This document shows, one piece after another, positions 48,032 through 59,200 of a stretch of DNA of 64,000 bases. A model generated the notes under the pieces. The model had not been told where the DNA came from, made no database searches, and saw nothing but the letters and a program-made list of their open reading frames with translations. Origin of the DNA: Octopus vulgaris (taxonomy: Eukaryota); the NCBI GenBank assembly GCA_951406725.2, contig OX597824.1:36146001-36210000 (forward strand). The letters run 5' to 3'. Every line of letters starts with the position of its first letter. The stretch's first letter is position 1. Both the position numbers and the translations under genes were made by a program.

Positions 48032-48083
<52 letters not shown>

Positions 48084-51000
48084 TTAAAAAAAGGAGATGT
48101 CGAACACGAGTGGTGATATATAAAAAAGGAAATGAAGAAAATGCTGACAAATAATTGAAGTAATTTAAGTAATTTAATTAGGTGAATGTTCTTTTACCGG
48201 TTGCGCATTTGTTATGCTTATCAAAATATAAAAGAGAGATTAGAGTCTGTCTCTTATATGTGGAAAAAAAGAGGCTCCAGAGTTGTTTTGGATTTGCTTG
48301 GTTTCGCGCCTAAAATTTTGATTGGTCATTATGAAGGGGTCACGTGAATGTTTGAATGGAAGTTGGTGCTGGGGTAAGAAAAAAGGCTCCAGAGAAGTTA
48401 AAATTTGGCTAGTGTCCCGCCTAAAATTTCTTATTGGCCATAATAAAGAGGTCACGTGAATGTTTAGAATTTTCGAAAATAGTGTTGTTGAAACTTCTTA
48501 TTGTTCAGGCTGGTCAGTAGACGTCATGTGGATATTTTAAATAGCTTTTTAGCGCGTAGTTAGGGAGTGTATTTTCCGCTTGACTGGATAAGTAAGTTCG
48601 TTTAGAACAGGGAGAGCTGTATGTATGTATGTGTGCGCGCGCGCGTGTGTGTTTATATGTATGTTGGGGCGCGCGCGTGTATATATGTTTGTGTGTGTGG
48701 GTACAATTTTCAATATTTATAGTTCTGCTGGCCTTGTGCCTGTATCGGGAAGCAACGTATTTGTGTGAAGTCAATATTTACAGCCATTTCCAAAAAATAG
48801 TGTTGGATGTTTTGCACCCGTATTCAATTATGTGTATGTGTGGAACCATATATTTGTGTGTGTCATGGTGTTAATATCTGGGTAAAGGTGTGTGTAGGGT
48901 GTGTGCAGGTGTAAGTGTGTTTGTTGTGGGTTCGTGTTAGGGGCATGTGTTTAGAAGTGGTCTGTATTTATTAATAAGGTGGGATTCCATGGTTATTCGC
49001 TGGGTATGAGTGGCATTGTCTTTAAATTTGTAGAGGGGAAAGATTCTAAAATTGGGATGGAGTTGTGCGGCACAGGTATCAATATGTGCACTAAATGCTA
49101 TTTTTCTATATTCCTGTATTTTTATTTGGGATCTGTGGACAGTCATGCGTTGGCGGAGGCTATTTTTTGTTTGGCCTATGTAGTGTTCATTACAGCCCGA
49201 GCAAGTTAAGACATATACTAGGTTTTCTGATGCGCATGTGAAGTTGTGTTTTACTGTGAAACGTTGTCCTTGTTTAAAAAGGAATTCCGGACCTTCTATT
49301 AGGTTGATGCATATACCACAGTTGGGTCTATTGCATTTGTTTACTGTGGGTTTAGTTGTTGTGGTTGGCAGTACTTTGGCATTTGTTAGGATGGTTTTCA
49401 ATGATTTGGGTTGCCTTTTGCTCTTTATGATTTCGTGTGTTAGGAGGATTTGGTTCATTCTATGGTCCTTTTGTAATATAGGAATGTTCTGGAGGATGGT
49501 GTCAAAAGCTTCATTGTTGAGGGGGTTGTGTGTAGAGATGTATGGTAGAGTATGGGGTTTCGATGTAACAGGTTTAGGGCGTCTAAGTTCCTGCGTGCTG
49601 ATTTTTAGGGCGCGTTGGATCCCATTGTCAATTAGTGACGTGGGGTAATCCCTGCTTGTTAATGTGCCCTTGAGTTCTTGTAGACGTAAGAGACGGGTGT
49701 TTTTATTGGAGACTATAGTGCAAATTCTCTTGGCTAAGTTGTAGGGAATGTTAATTTTAACGTGTCTAGGGTGGCATGAATTGAAAGGGAGGTATTGCTT
49801 GGAGTCTGTGGGCTTGTAGTATATGTCTGTTTCTATTTTTTTGTTGTGAATTTTAATGAGGATGTCGAGGAAGGGAATTTGTTGAGGGCTGTATTCCATT
49901 GTGAAAATAATGTTTGTGTTGAGCCCATTTATAAGAGTGTGAAATTCGTTAAGCTTCTCGACGGTTTCGGGCCAAAGGATGAAGCAGTCATCAAGATATC
50001 TCTTCCAGTTCTTCTCTATGTGTGTGTGGAGAGTGGTGCCAAATTGGTTAAGAACGTTATTATAGAGGGTGATTTCCAGGTATCCCATGACTAAGTTGGC
50101 GTAAGTGGGAGCTGTTTTCGTTCCCATTGCCGTCCCTGATTTCTGTCTGTAGAATTTGTTGTTGAAGGTGAAGAAATTATTCTCTAAGATGAATTTGAGT
50201 CCTTCTAAAATAAATTCCTTTTTGATGCGGTGTGGGAGTTCGTTGGAGTAATTATCCAGCCAGAATTGGATAGCTTCTATTCCTAGGTTGTGGGGGATGT
50301 TGGAGTAAAGATTGACTACATCGAATGTTACTAGCAGGGTTTGTTCAGCAAGAAGTGTATTGGGGAGGTGGTTGAGCATATCTAGATCGTCCCTTATGTA
50401 GCTTTTAATGTGTTTGAGGAACGGCTTGAGAAGGGTATCAATGAAGTTGCTAAGGCGGTGGGTTTCGCAAGCGGGACCTGCTATTATAGGTCTCAATTTG
50501 AGGTCATTTGGTGAGGGGACATTGATTACAGAGTTTGTGGCTTCCTTGCATGCCTTACTTATTAATTCGCTTTTATGAATTTTGGGAATACCGTAGAAGA
50601 GGCTGGTTTTACTAGTGAAATTTGTGATGAAGTTGAATTCTTTGTTAGTGAGTTCTTCTTTGTGGGGGTTGATCAGGGTTTTTAAGTTTCTCATAATTTT
50701 CTGTTGATTGTAGTGTTCAGCCTTTTCGTAATATGTTCCATTTTCCAAGGTGGAGAGTGCTAAGTTGATATAGTATTCTGTCTCCATTAAGACTACTGCA
50801 CTTCCTTTATCGGCCTCTTTAATGGTGATAGATCTTTCATTTTTTAATTTGTTTAATTCTTCCCACTCTTTCTTGTTGAGGTTTGGTTTGGGTTTTGGTT
50901 TGTGTAAGTGTTGGTAGGGGAAGTTTGTAATGTGCTCACAGAATTCGTCTAGGATTTTATTTCTACCTTTTCGTGGGGTGTAGTTGCTTTTATTTCTAGC

Positions 51001-54000
51001 TAGTGACTCATCCTCATTGTGCTGGTCGAATAGTTCCTCACTAAGTCGCAATTTTCTACAAAATTCTGTAATGTCTTCCTTCATTTCGTAGTAGTTTGGA
51101 CGTGGGGGGGTTGGTGTGAATTTCAGACCTTTGGAGAGTAAGTTGAGAAGGTTGGGGTTGGGTTCTGTATTGGTTAAATTGATGACTTTAATTAGTTTAT
51201 GTTTCTCTTCCCTGTCCTGTGTTATTTTGTTTGCCTGTATCTGTGTGCTGTGTCTAAAAAATGGTTGGGGTAGAGGGGTTGTCTGTTGGTGTTAGGAGGT
51301 CCTGTGTGTTTGTTATATTCCTTGTTGTGAAATATGGTTCGGGTTCGTGGTTGTGGATAGAATGGGGTGTTCCTGTATTGCGGGTGTTGGTGTGTGTTTC
51401 TTTGTGTTGTGATGAATTGTGGTGATATGAGTGGCCTGCGTGGGTGCTTGTATCGAGTGGTATGGGTTTGTTGTGTATTGTGAGAGTTGAGAAAGTGAAA
51501 ATTACCTTGTTGTCCCCTCGTGGTGTGGATGTTGTTGTGTCTATCCTGGTAGTGGGATCCTCTTTTATTTGTTAATAAGGTATTCGAGTAGTTGTTGAGT
51601 TGTTGTGTGTAGCGTCTCCTTGAAGAGGGAAATTCGTTAATATAATTCTGGTGGTGAGAGTTTCCAGGGTTCTTGTTCCTCCTTATGGACGTGGGGTAAG
51701 AAGGTACATCTTCAATATGCTGTTTCCTTCTTTTGTTCAAGGTTGGAGGGTTGGTGGAGTAGTTGTGTGGTTGGGTTCCTGGTTTTCCCATTTTTATGAA
51801 CGGGTTATTGGAAGAGTAATCCGTTTTGAAAGTCGATTCATAGTTTAGGAACCAGGCGGCACTTTTTTCCCAGCGTTGTAGGGATTTTAGTTCCTCTTTG
51901 TTGCAGTCATCTTTCCATAACTTGGAGATCTTCTCTATGTGTAGGCTTTCAGCCTTGTTATTTATTACGAGGAGGATCTCTTCATCGATTGTTTTGACTC
52001 TTTCCTCATTTGTTTGGGCCCTTAATTTGAGAAGTTCAATCTCTGTTTTCAGTCTCTCTAATGCCATTCTTTCCCTAAGTCGTCTTTGAGGTTCAGGTTC
52101 ATTGGGAATGGCTTTTAATTGTATTTTGCGGGGAAGAGTTAGAGGAGTAGAGTTCATCCATTTTTCGTATATCTCGGCCTTGTTGTTGTTTCTAATCATT
52201 TTCCAGAAGGAGAACTTTCTGTCTCTGAGGGATTTGTTCCATTCTGGGATTATATGATTTTTCAGTTTGTATGAATCAATTTGACATGGTTCTTCTTTGT
52301 TTTTGGCTGGGTTGGTGGTGGTGAAAAAGGTGTGGATCGTATCACACAGAGTTTGTAGCTTATCGCCGATTTCGGAGGGTTTGTGTCCGGTAATGGTTTC
52401 CTCATTAGTAGAGTCCAATTTGTTGACTAGTACAGAGAGGTTGGTGTTGATGTTTTTGAGTTCCTGTAGGATTTCTTCGTTTAAGTTGATTAGGGTGGTT
52501 TCAGTTTTTGTAGGCATTTTCTGTATCTCGTGCGGGGATATGATATTTAAAAAAAGGAGATGTCGAACACGAGTGGTGATATATAAAAAAGGAAATGAAG
52601 AAAATGCTGACAAATAATTGAAGTAATTTAAGTAATTTAATTAGGTGAATGTTCTTTTACCGGTTGCGCATTTGTTATGCTTATCAAAATATAAAAGAGA
52701 GATTAGAGTCTGTCTCTTATATGTGGAAAAAAAGAGGCTCCAGAGTTGTTTTGGATTTGCTTGGTTTCGCGCCTAAAATTTTGATTGGTCATTATGAAGG
52801 GGTCACGTGAATGTTTGAATGGAAGTTGGTGCTGGGGTAAGAAAAAAGGCTCCAGAGAAGTTAAAATTTGGCTAGTGTCCCGCCTAAAATTTCTTATTGG
52901 CCATAATAAAGAGGTCACGTGAATGTTTAGAATTTTCGAAAATAGTGTTGTTGAAACTTCTTATTGTTCAGGCTGGTCAGTAGACGTCATGTGGATATTT
53001 TAAATAGCTTTTTAGCGCGTAGTTAGGGAGTGTATTTTCCGCTTGACTGGATAAGTAAGTTCGTTTAGAACAGGGAGAGCTGTATGTATGTATGTGTGCG
53101 CGCGCGCGCGCGTGTGTGTTTATATGTATGTTGGGGCGCGCGCGTGTATATATGTTTGTGTGTGTGGGTACAATTTTCAATATTTATAGTTCTGCTGGCC
53201 TTGTGCCTGTATCGGGAAGCAACGTATTTGTGTGAAGTCAATATTTACAGCCATTTCCAAAAAATAGTGTTGGCTGTTTTGCACCCGTATTCAATTATGT
53301 GTATGTGTGGAACCATATATTTGTGTGTGTCATGGTGTTAATATCTGGGTAAAGGTGTGTGTAGGGTGTGTGCAGGTGTAAGTGTGTTTGTTGTGGGTTC
53401 GTGTTAGGGGCATGTGTTTAGAAGTGGTCTGTATTTATTAATAAGGTGGGATTCCATGGTTATTCGCTGGGTATGAGTGGCATTGTCTTTAAATTTGTAG
53501 AGGGGAAAGATTCTAAAATTGGGATGGAGTTGTGCGGCACAGGTATCAATATGTGCACTAAATGCTATTTTTCTATATTCCTGTATTTTTATTTGGGATC
53601 TGTGGACAGTCATGCGTTGGCGGAGGCTATTTTTTGTTTGGCCTATGTAGTGTTCATTACAGCCCGAGCAAGTTAAGACATATACTAGGTTTTCTGATGC
53701 GCATGTGAAGTTGTGTTTTACTGTGAAACGTTGTCCTTGTTTAAAAAGGAATTCCAGACCTTCTATTAGGTTGATGCATATACCACAGTTGGGTCTATTG
53801 CATTTGTTTACTGTGGGTTTAGTTGTTGTGGTTGGCAGTACTTTGGCATTTGTTAGGATGGTTTTCAATGATTTGGGTTGCCTTTTGCTCTTTATGATTT
53901 CGTGTGTTAGGAGGATTTGGTTCATTCTATGGTCCTTTTGTAATATAGGAATGTTCTGGAGGATGGTGTCAAAAGCTTCATTGTTGAGGGGGTTGTGTGT

Positions 54001-56168
54001 AGAGATGTATGGTAGAGTATGGGGTTTCGATGTAACAGGTTTAGGGCGTCTAAGTTCCTGCGTGCTGATTTTTAGGGCGCGTTGGATCCCATTGTCAATT
54101 AGTGACGTGGGGTAATCCCTGCTTGTTAATGTGCCCTTGAGTTCTTGTAGACGTAAGAGACGGGTGTTTTTATTGGAGACTATAGTGCAAATTCTCTTGG
54201 CTAAGTTGTAGGGAATGTTAATTTTAACGTGTCTAGGGTGGCATGAATTGAAAGGGAGGTATTGCTTGGAGTCTGTGAACTGGAAGAGATATCTTGATGA
54301 CTGCTTCATCCTTTGGCCCGAAACCGTCGAGAAGCTTAACGAATTTCACACTCTTATAAATGGGCTCAACACAAACATTATTTTCACAATGGAATACAGC
54401 CCTCAACAAATTCCCTTCCTCGACATCCTCATTAAAATTCACAACAAAAAAATAGAAACAGACATATACTACAAGCCCACAGACTCCAAGCAATACCTCC
54501 CTTTCAATTCATGCCACCCTAGACACGTTAAAATTAACATTCCCTACAACTTAGCCAAGAGAATTTGCACTATAGTCTCCAATAAAAACACCCGTCTCTT
54601 ACGTCTACAAGAACTCAAGGGCACATTAACAAGCAGGGATTACCCCACGTCACTAATTGACAATGGGATCCAACGCGCCCTAAAAATCAGCACGCAGGAA
54701 CTTAGACGCCCTAAACCTGTTACATCGAAACCCCATACTCTACCATACATCTCTACACACAACCCCCTCAACAATGAAGCTTTTGACACCATCCTCCAGA
54801 ACATTCCTATATTACAAAAGGACCATAGAATGAACCAAATCCTCCTAACACACGAAATCATAAAGAGCAAAAGGCAACCCAAATCATTGAAAACCATCCT
54901 AACAAATGCCAAAGTACTGCCAACCACAACAACTAAACCCACAGTAAACAAATGCAATAGACCCAACTGTGGTATATGCATCAACCTAATAGAAGGTCCG
55001 GAATTCCTTTTTAAACAAGGACAACGTTTCACAGTAAAACACAACTTCACATGCGCATCAGAAAACCTAGTATATGTCTTAACTTGCTCGGGCTGTAATG
55101 AACACTACATAGGCCAAACAAAAAATAGCCTCCGCCAACGCATGACTGTCCACAGATCCCAAATAAAAATACAGGAATATAGAAAAATAGCATTTAGTGC
55201 ACATATTGATACCTGTGCCGCACAACTCCATCCCAATTTTAGAATCTTTCCCCTCTACAAATTTAAAGACAATGCCACTCATACCCAGCGAATAACCATG
55301 GAATCCCACCTTATTAATAAATACAGACCACTTCTAAACACATGCCCCTAACACGAACCCACAACAAACACACTTACACCTGCACACACCCTACACACAC
55401 CTTTACCCAGATATTAACACCATGACACACACAAATATATGGTTCCACACATACACATAATTGAATACGGGTGCAAAACATCCAACACTATTTTTTGGAA
55501 ATGGCTGTAAATATTGACTTCACACAAATACGTTGCTTCCCGATACAGGCACAAGGCCAGCAGAACTATAAATATTGAAAATTGTACCCACACACACAAA
55601 CATATATACACGCGCGCGCCCCAACATACATATAAACACACACGCGCGCGCGCGCGCGCACACATACATACATACAGCTCTCCCTGTTCTAAACGAACTT
55701 ACTTATCCAGTCAAGCGGAAAATACACTCCCTAACTACGCGCTAAAAAGCTATTTAAAATATCCACATGACGTCTACTGACCAGCCTGAACAATAAGAAG
55801 TTTCAACAACACTATTTTCGAAAATTCTAAACATTCACGTGACCTCTTTATTATGGCCAATAAGAAATTTTAGGCGGGACACTAGCCAAATTTTAACTTC
55901 TCTGGAGCCTTTTTTCTTACCCCAGCACCAACTTCCATTCAAACATTCACGTGACCCCTTCATAATGACCAATCAAAATTTTAGGCGCGAAACCAAGCAA
56001 ATCCAAAACAACTCTGGAGCCTCTTTTTTTCCACATATAAGAGACAGACTCTAATCTCTCTTTTATATTTTGATAAGCGTAACAAATGCGCAACCGGTAA
56101 AAGAACATTCACCTAATTAAATTACTTAAATTACTTCAATTATTTGTCAGCATTTTCTTCATTTCCTT

Positions 56169-56241
<73 letters not shown>

Positions 56242-59200
56242 CATATATATATAGCATAATTAAATATCAGAATGAGATTGAAACAGTAATCGCTCAATAA
56301 TGTAAAGTATAGAAGCCATCTTATCATGGCTAACCACATTGGGGAGGGGGTGTTACTGTAGCTTTATAGCCCCAAGATATCTTTGTCTCAAGCTGGCTTT
56401 AGACACAATATCTGTGTCCTTGGAGTATTTGCAAAGGGAGGCCATCCCTTCCTCGCAAGCCTGAGTGATACGCTCGAACTAGTTTCGGGATTGTTGTCCC
56501 TCGTCAATGGGCGGTAACCACCAGGTAGCGATGAAAGAGAAGGCTCCTTTGCAAATAGATATAAGTTTTTCTAATGGCGTCTGCCACTGATGTCGAAAAA
56601 CGAACAGTAAGCATAATTAAATCTCAGAATGAGATTGAAACAGTAATCGCTCGATAATGTAAAGTATAGAAGCCATCTTATCATGGCTAACCACATTGGG
56701 GAGGGGGTGTTACTGTAGCTTTATAGCCCCAAGAGATCTTAGGAAAATAAATATCTATCATTACATTGTGCATCTATGAATGTTTACCAGGTTGAGTTAA
56801 AAGTTTTTTTTTAGTATTTTAAGCCTTAATTAACAGTTCATATGAATTACATACGCAAAATGTCTATTCATCATAATATATCCCTTCTTATTCTATTGTC
56901 TGTTACCATCATTGTGCTAGAAGCTCGTTTCCACTCTTATGTTATTTGCCTGGTTTGGCAGCAAAAAGCTCACTGCATCTGTTTTCAACCTCATCCACAT
57001 TCTTGAGCCCCAGTCTGTGTAGAAATGAGCCATGGCTTGGAAAAGGTGGTAATCTGATGTTGCAATGTCTGGACTGTAGGTAGTGTGAAGCAGCACTTTC
57101 AGCCCCTCAAGTTCCTCAAGTTTGTGCTTGGTCACATTGGCAGTGTATGCGGAGGCATTGTCATGCTGTAGGAGTGTGCATCTTTGATTGTCCAATGATG
57201 TGTAGCAGCCTTTCAAAGCATCATGTACTTGCTGCAGTTGTTGAGCCTAAAGGTTAGCATTCACTGCGTAACCATTTGGGACAAGCTCAGAGTGCAACAT
57301 CTCCTCGAAATTCCATCAAACACACAACATGACCTTCTGTTCAAACCTCTCTTGTTTGACAACAGGTTCTGAAGCCATGCTGGAATGAAGCCACTAATTT
57401 CTTTTATTAAGATTATCAAAATAATCCATTTTTCATTCCCAGTTACAATTCAACACAAAAAACGGGTGTCACAAGAATTTGCCAGCAGTTGTTTGCAAAT
57501 TCTCACATTGTTGAGCCTGGTCATTGGTCAGTTCATGAAGAGCATTTCGACATCATCTGTTCACAAGGCTGAGTTTATGGAGTTTTGTGAATCAAGTTCT
57601 ACCAACAATTCATGAGTGCTTATGCTTGGCTGATGTTCAACCATTTCAAGCAAGGCCTCTTCCACAAAAGAAGGCCTCCCTGATCTTAGTTTGTCTCCAA
57701 GTCTGGTGTCACCTTTCCTGAAATGCCTGAACCAGTTTTATGTCATATGTTCATTGACAGTTCCTAGGCTTTCCACACTGTTAATTTCTTTTGCCACTGC
57801 CCTTGCACTCATTCCTACTTTTCCATATGTAGCATAAAATAGCTTTAATTGTAATTTTTTCATTGCTCATTATCAAAGCTGTAGAATAAAGAATAAACAT
57901 TTAATGTTCATGTGCTGTGTAGGAAAATAAAGAATAAACATTTCATCAATGACTGGGCAACAAGTTGTATCAAATTAATCATGTAACATGGAAATACAAG
58001 CTATCAAAAATCATCAGGGAAAATCTGAAAAACGTTTTGCATCAACCTGATACATTCTATAATGTCAATAATGTCAATTAATTGAGCAAAACTGGAGATT
58101 TTATGTTAACAATTCCATAGCAACAAATTGACCCTTAGTTCTGAAATTTCAAAACAGCTGGAATAAAAATGTCTTGCATGGAAAACAGGTAGTGATTAGG
58201 GACAGGAAGAGCATGTGGTTGTGAAATAATGTTTCAATAATAAGTCTTCATTCAGTCTATACTAGCATTGAAAATGGTTGTTAAATGAATGAATAAATAT
58301 CATATTCATCATAAGTTCTCTTTAAAATCTACGTTATTTACTTAGTGATATTGCCTGTGCTACTTACTATACAATAGATTTGTGCTATTATTTCTCTTTA
58401 ATCCTTTGATATTACCAGCTTAATACAAGACTGACCATTTTAAAGTGTGTATATTTAAATTAAAATTGTCCATAATAATTTTGATGAGATTGCAGAATTG
58501 TTAGTACACTGGGAAAAATGCTTAGTGGCTTTTTGTCCATCTTTATGTTCTGAGTTCAAATTCTGTCAAGGTCAGTTTTGCCTTTCATCCTTTCAGGGTC
58601 AATGAAACAAGTACCAGTTAGCACTGGGGTCAATGTAATTGACTGGCACCTATCCCTGGAATTTCAGGCCTTGTGCCTATAACAGAAAGGATTATCATTC
58701 AATCCCTAATATAAATACTTTGAATATTCCTAAAATTACATCCCAAATATGACAATAAAACTGATAATACAAGTAAAATTAATTTATGGCTATAATAAAA
58801 CTTTTCTGCTATTCTTGATAATTTTGCAATATTTAGTATTATAGTGAAGGTGTCCGTAAAATTCCTACAGCATGTATAACTGTTGAAGATGCTGAGATGA
58901 TGGAGCGTATGTCTAAACGAGGTTTGTATCTCTATTTCAAAATAATTTTTAATCTGTTTTAAAATTTTGTGTTATAACTCCTTCAAGTCTTTTTTTGTCA
59001 TTTCAATTATAGATGACACCAGATTTCCTTCCATCTAACATTTGTACTTTGCATGTTCATTTGGATATGTGAATTTGTCCATCACCAAACTTCTCTTCTT
59101 TTCTGCTTTTTATCCTCCCCCTCCTCCTCCACCACTACAAAATCCACGTCGATGGATTTGTATAGGGATACCACATCCATGCTACCCACTATACATCCTG

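Follow-up and report, generated by a model that had tools for sequence, protein, structure and literature searches.

A probable -1 ribosomal frameshift between ORF1 and the reverse transcriptase-endonuclease frame of a Neptune-type Penelope-like element

The window, a stretch of 64,000 nt of Octopus vulgaris DNA, contains an intact Neptune-type Penelope-like element (PLE) of a young, multi-copy family, and its reverse transcriptase-endonuclease (RT-EN) is very probably made by programmed -1 ribosomal frameshifting at a U UUU UUA heptamer. We base this on sequence comparison: the reading is supported by the two frames, the phase of the heptamer, the invariance of its T-run, a clade-wide conservation in which one heptamer is exchanged for another, and the lack of an AUG before the conserved ORF2 motifs. 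The earlier note had proposed a frameshift as a feature of this element. That proposal is supported, with the qualification that the frameshift is likely clade-wide in Neptune-type elements, judging from the junctions described below, and not a one-off; a precedent in PLEs exists.

The element and its overlapping frames

The element and the partial copies joined to it are arranged as follows:

48080..52542, minus strand: full-length Penelope-like unit with 3' pseudo-LTR
52543..54277, minus strand: 5'-truncated tandem copy, source of the upstream pseudo-LTR
54277..56178, plus strand: inverted, 5'-truncated copy, head-to-head
48035..48086, no strand: (TA)n microsatellite, 3' insertion boundary

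The tandem copy is identical to 48080-49810 at 1729 of 1731 aligned bases. Another (TA)n run lies beyond the inverted copy (about 56172-56250), and the whole tandem and inverted array is flanked by (TA)n runs. Pseudo-LTRs derived from tandem and inverted partial copies are present, as for endonuclease-bearing (EN+) PLEs, and the insertion lies in (TA)n, in the interior of a large contig, as opposed to the telomeric repeats of Athena and Coprina. Within the pseudo-LTR (52727-52928, 48264-48465 and 55829-56030) there is a duplicated unit with 112-nt spacing that carries CACGTGAC, CCAAT and GGCG motifs and is likely a promoter module. Neither the canonical hammerhead core CTGANGA..GAAA nor an Rfam hammerhead match was found (minimal variants could escape the pattern and be missed by Rfam), and the Rfam matches that did appear were microsatellite noise. 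Clustered A>G differences on the plus strand (48415-48578 and 49082-49108) were seen in contigs of two runs guessed to be RNA (X5 and X2); this is the pattern expected from A-to-I editing of antisense or double-stranded RNA.

The reading frames and their landmarks are:

51222..52517, minus strand: ORF1, 431 aa (ATG at 52517; frame open 52640-51222)
48937..51291, minus strand: ORF2 frame, 784 codons (772 after the slip), opening after the TAA at 51294-51292
51222..51291, minus strand: ORF1/ORF2 overlap, 70 nt, -1
51255..51261, minus strand: slippery heptamer T TTT TTA in X XXY YYZ phase
51222..51224, minus strand: ORF1 stop TAA, candidate roadblock, exactly 10 codons past the heptamer's UUA
51106..51183, minus strand: conserved N-terminal motifs (INL, then a second motif), upstream of the first ORF2 ATG
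51082..51084, minus strand: first in-frame ORF2 ATG, codon 70 of the frame
49987..49998, minus strand: RT catalytic motif YLDD
49309..49335, minus strand: CX4CxxC linker zinc finger of Neptune/Nematis type (CNRPNCGIC at residue 653)
48958..49221, minus strand: GIY-YIG endonuclease domain (Pfam PF01541)

ORF2 thus runs from its N-terminal motifs through the RT and the linker zinc finger to the GIY-YIG endonuclease, with Pfam matches to RVT_1 at residues 265-442 and to GIY-YIG at residues 691-778. The presence of the endonuclease places the element outside the EN- Athena and Coprina groups. Its assignment to the Neptune clade is made on the linker zinc finger and on its RT motifs, which by eye appear closer to the Neptune than to the Nematis rows of the alignment in the supplement of Craig et al. 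2021 (our RT tree held no named references). It shares with Neptune, as described in the passages of that paper on the clade (PMC8557442), an RT with C-terminal GIY-YIG, a CX2-5CxxC linker zinc finger, pseudo-LTRs, tandem and inverted insertion and a (TA)n target; it differs in that Neptune is described there as single-ORF, whereas here a separate ORF1 and the RT frame overlap at a slippery heptamer.

All positions given in the earlier note for the end of ORF1, the opening of ORF2, the overlap of about 70 nt and the in-phase heptamer were verified. The heptamer reads Phe-Leu in the ORF1 frame and Phe-Phe-Arg in the ORF2 frame. By itself it proves little, because the chance of one in-phase heptamer in this single overlap is about 0.15; the evidence beyond chance is its conservation. 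The ATG at 51084 lies 57 codons past the heptamer's two Phe codons, and initiation there would indeed, as had been claimed, omit conserved N-terminal motifs, since INL (51183) and the second motif (51138) lie before it. In the proposed mechanism, tRNA-Phe and tRNA-Leu would move from UUU UUA to UUU UUU. The majority of ribosomes would reach the stop 10 codons past the heptamer and release ORF1p, and those that slip would make an ORF1-RT-EN fusion whose predicted length of about 1193 aa we recomputed (421 + 772 = 1193). By analogy with gag-pol, ORF1p might then serve as an excess structural or RNA-binding partner.

Conservation of the junction and other ways of expressing ORF2

A pattern search of the genome that allowed 4-8 letters in the T-run found exactly six T at all 45 matched sites of the window's family (family A), and the T6 junction is shared by the best 30 of 40 scored genomic copies, which were chosen by similarity. 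Three further families of the same genome, B, C and D, with ORF2 N-termini 71, 53 and 61% identical to that of the window's family, have likewise retained ORF1, an overlap of 61-82 nt in the -1 direction and an in-phase T TTT TTA G; T6 is present at 23/25, 12/13 and 7/8 of their matched sites, respectively. All four families have two overlapping ORFs in place of the single ORF described for canonical EN+ PLEs. Their ORF1 tails are of unequal length and barely align. Family B is seemingly larger than the window's family, accounting for about 100 of the best 150 matches, many with an intact 784-codon ORF2 (for example G000, C6:52232705-52233391).

As the site is a homopolymer run, the break between the frames could be put down to an indel, to an assembly error or to a shared defect of a dead subfamily. 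T7, found at 2/25 family-B sites, does fuse the frames, and P0133 continues in frame from an ORF1 homologue into ORF2 sequence. However, the 45/45 count, the same heptamer in families B-D and the ORF1 homologue survey, in which the best 150 of 1,070 clusters are all 609 aa or shorter, refute a homopolymer artefact. Independent assemblies (X15 and X19, runs with other organism codes) contain no indel at this place, and the same two-frame layout recurs at 30-48% RT identity. We give this explanation virtually no chance. The earlier note had looked to other copies and relatives for one continuous ORF, on the one hand, or for persistence of the T6A heptamer and -1 overlap, on the other: no continuous ORF was found in the window's family, and heptamer and overlap are kept in the four families and in other hosts.

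For the latter, we drew 130 loci from contigs of genomes and metagenomes. Eighty-three matches reach the RT N-terminus with at least 150 nt upstream and form 53 clusters at 80% identity, giving 57 family-level clusters with the four families above. A -1 overlapping ORF of 190 or more codons is present in 24/57 clusters, and a +1 ORF of that length in 3/57. An in-phase heptamer occurs in 18 of these 24, compared with 2.45 expected from shuffles and five out of phase (over two phases), with the proviso that the clusters are not independent (four come from this genome and about 11 from one assembly) and P values are overstated. Twenty-two junctions, selected for T6 or GGGTTT heptamers, comprise 10 with TTTTTTA, two with TTTTTTG, nine with GGGTTTT and one with GGGTTTC. 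They lie on two deep branches of the RT tree, with identity down to 30% (10 short-ORF2 clusters excluded); the heptamer type differs between lineages and its phase and place are unchanged. At these junctions the ORF2 frame closes a median of 10 codons 5' of the heptamer and is open 3' of it.

The junction is also visible from the ORF1 side. A profile built from eight ORF1s, with the FL columns included (a possible bias, though the scores come mainly from the N-terminal domain), retrieved the 1,070 clusters mentioned above at E up to 0.001. Phe-Leu occurs in the last 45 residues of 77/92 homologues of 320 or more aa; the two windows ahead of that stretch give 5 and 3. No homologue has K, E, Q, M or W, the residues without a codon ending in U, directly before FL (0/77, background 0.179), in keeping with the U that U UUU UUA/G requires there. 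Longer fused ORF1-RT proteins were looked for and not found, which is weak evidence. ORF1 itself is predicted to form long helices at about residues 80-237 followed by a disordered N/R/Q/H-rich tail (mean pLDDT 60.6). It gave no convincing Pfam match, including none to Gag or esterase, and no PDB sequence match, and every ESM Atlas match scored below 0.9 and provides leads only. None of 13 homologues tested matched Pfam. As delimited by the profile, ORF1 is a large unannotated family that is absent from Pfam.

Six of the 24 clusters have no canonical in-phase heptamer. In L240 and a second unit in L220 (together with L218, which is below the size cut) the homologous place holds only G TGT TTT, G TTT TTT or G TAT TTT; L124 and L186 have neither a heptamer nor an AUGA overlap; and L195 and L200 have an AUGA stop-start overlap, which is also found in L185 and L194. 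The four AUGA overlaps come from one metagenome:

L185:505-520: AUGA overlap
L194:380-400: AUGA overlap
L195:2575-2592: AUGA overlap
L200:1845-1860: AUGA overlap

This group suggests termination-reinitiation as a different coupling route. These distant two-ORF relatives also favor the view that ORF2 of the window's family has a start of its own, whether by reinitiation after the ORF1 stop, at a near-cognate AUA overlapping that stop or at AUG 51084, with the heptamer a relic or a by-product of Phe-Leu. Families C and D have an ORF2-frame AUG (AUG G) 29 nt past the heptamer where A and B have AUA overlapping the ORF1 stop, and a start before the motif is called in 52/120 database ORF2 homologues. 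Yet the window's family and B, both without AUG before the conserved motifs, exist as many near-identical intact copies, and 11/22 junctions have no AUG ahead of the RT motif. Moreover, all 12 DNA-read Phe-Leu junctions use T TTT TTA/G, although TTT accounts for only 6/14 Phe and TTA for 8/35 Leu codons of ORF1, and in the G GGT TTT/C lineages it is slipperiness that has been kept, and not Phe-Leu. We consider an independent ORF2 start unlikely.

It is more improbable still that the T6AG is a 3' splice acceptor and that an intron joins a 5' exon to ORF2. G follows TTTTTTA at 10/10 sites, FL is most often followed by G, E or D (52/77), and one gene model in the databases, P0267, combines an ORF1 homologue with RT. 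PLEs are, moreover, described as keeping introns (Craig et al. 2021, PMC8557442). Against this, P0267 continues beyond FL in the frame of ORF1, as expected of a patch by the gene caller. The 12/22 junctions with TTTTTTG, GGGTTTT or GGGTTTC have no AG, and the residue after FL cannot begin with G, which excludes AG, in at least 24/77 protein homologues. ORF1 has a single donor-like site (51505), in phase 1, from which splicing would lead back into the ORF1 frame; those of families B and C are all phase 1, and D has none. Finally, contigs of 3063, 3659, 1284 and 394 nt from four runs span the site without gap or joint, and no joint was seen there in the eight runs compared. None of the runs is recorded as RNA and that status is guessed; rare splice forms, moreover, drop out of contigs. 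As the earlier note had raised an intron joining the frames as an alternative, we note that the transcript-like contigs are unspliced and that ORF1 offers no donor-like GT other than one whose phase is wrong. With these observations, the AG-less variants, and neither an in-phase donor nor spliced RNA found, the splice acceptor is largely rejected and -1 frameshifting is retained as the preferred reading.

Some relatives are single-ORF (L181, L191, L125 and L129). Their N-terminal domain (L181:136-675, L191:971-1500, L125:2126-2611, L129:924-1439) can be aligned with ORF1 of the G GGT TTT group, which suggests that one domain has been split or fused. The window's ORF1 is weakly linked to it (profile match with probability 1.5 and E 0.034, one row in the wrong frame), and we do not claim that homology. 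No relative was found in viral contigs. Animal PLEs do occur inside bacterial metagenome-assembled genomes (L112, L117, L130 and others), and several RT-EN homologues carry symbiont protein names; the elements in bacterial assemblies are probably host contamination.

RNA structure and the spacing of the ORF1 stop

The earlier note had seen no obvious 3' hairpin, and folding of the 100 nt downstream of the heptamer agrees (-1.2 kcal/mol, z = +1.35). No stimulatory hairpin or pseudoknot was found 5-9 nt downstream in the window's family, and the search for a consensus structure in 10 T6 junctions and for a shared long-range duplex gave none. Since no stimulatory structure was found, frameshift efficiency may be low. 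A weak hairpin about 8 nt downstream appears in the distant G GGT TTT group only (71% of cells paired, weakly covarying). In the G GGT TTT/C group the ORF1 stop lies 0-2 codons past the heptamer, at these loci and related ones:

L216:2641-2695: G GGT TTT/C junction
L220:2752-2806: G GGT TTT/C junction
L229:2659-2713: G GGT TTT/C junction

The T6 junctions have a different regularity. A stop lies exactly 10 codons after UUA at four DNA loci (the window's family, B, L173 and L180), and TAA, TAG or TGG occupies codon +10 in 7/12 T6 junctions. Among the 77 ORF1 homologues with FL, the C-terminus lies exactly 10 residues past FL in 22, one residue past it in six and 2-9 residues past it in a single protein (about 24-28 expected); the rest end at 11-40. 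The +10 state is clustered on the tree (11 changes vs 21 when shuffled) and persists at a median identity of 34%. We also considered that the spike might be a contig-end artefact (k=31 assemblies). Against this, the stops at +10 in the four DNA loci are real, and the 10 of the 22 +10 proteins that were looked up all lie on contigs that extend beyond the ORF, one of which measures 1.1 Mb.

Ten codons is also the spacing of an 80S disome. From the spacing, and by analogy with bacterial reporters, we tentatively raise the possibility that the hairpin is replaced by a ribosome terminating at the ORF1 stop, behind which the following one is held on the heptamer, an idea that we think has the odds against it. 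In the E. coli reporters described by Smith et al. 2019 (PMC6815119), a stop-stalled ribosome raises -1 slippage of the trailing ribosome, with a peak at a 9-codon spacer and a range of 8-10. The likeness is that a slippery heptad stands a fixed number of codons before a stop without RNA structure, the spacer being 10 here and 9 at the peak there. The difference is that PMC6815119 concerns artificial bacterial reporters with a slow UGA, whereas this would be a natural eukaryotic site with UAA or UAG. Alternatively, the +10 spacing could reflect a function of the ORF1 tail or a conserved hydrophobic ORF2 residue. With 55/77 homologues having other spacings, the 10-codon stop is not essential. 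For SARS-CoV-2, part of the literature proposes that a stop acts via pseudoknot refolding instead.

Relation to known systems and significance

The U UUU UUA site is that of HIV-1 gag-pol, where a stem-loop follows the heptamer, and within PLEs a frameshifted ORF1 is attributed to Athena/Terminon. The element resembles HIV-1 in its heptamer and in the logic of a structural protein plus a polymerase; it differs in having no stem-loop after the heptamer and an ORF1 without a Gag match in Pfam or PDB sequences. The earlier note had pointed to the description of canonical endonuclease-bearing PLEs as single-ORF, an ORF1 with a frameshift being better known from Athena elements. EN+ PLEs are indeed described as single-ORF in Craig et al. 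2021 (PMC8557442), while according to the Fig. 1 legend of that paper a frameshift with a pseudoknot can set a PLE ORF1 apart, the clade being unnamed in the accompanying text. Common to that arrangement and ours are an ORF1 with a frameshift in a PLE and a long helical, coiled-coil-like ORF1; the present element differs in having an endonuclease and no pseudoknot or hairpin.

Extra ORFs upstream of a Neptune RT have been reported before. The killifish repeat CL27 is a two-ORF Neptune whose description, in the sections concerned with it, mentions no frameshift (PMC12602865), and esterase-bearing ORF1s are reported for Neptune-like PLEs (PMC3905857, PMC5408684). Those ORFs, as presented in the relevant passages, are non-overlapping and ATG-defined or encode esterases, whereas the ORF1 described here has no esterase match. 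The word frameshift is absent from PMC12602865 and PMC3905857, and its single use in PMC5408684 concerns LTR elements. A literature search, whose reach stopped short of Arkhipova 2017 and of Gladyshev and Arkhipova 2007, turned up no account of an EN+ PLE with a slippery site, and the pertinent parts of PMC3846280, PMC11167929, PMC5718144, PMC7544508 and a 2026 preprint contain nothing on one.

The single-ORF picture of endonuclease-bearing PLEs would accordingly be revised to include a widespread Neptune lineage with a gag-pol-like layout, and RT-EN proteins annotated from the first Met would miss their N-terminus. The surprising part is the idea about stop spacing, more than the frameshift itself. 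If true, it would mean natural, conserved, collision-driven programmed frameshifting, an effect that PMC6815119, in the experiments cited, shows only in artificial bacterial reporters. RT output would then be tied to ribosome load, and, if the 10-codon stop is the stimulator, ribosome collisions would be a natural eukaryotic recoding signal.
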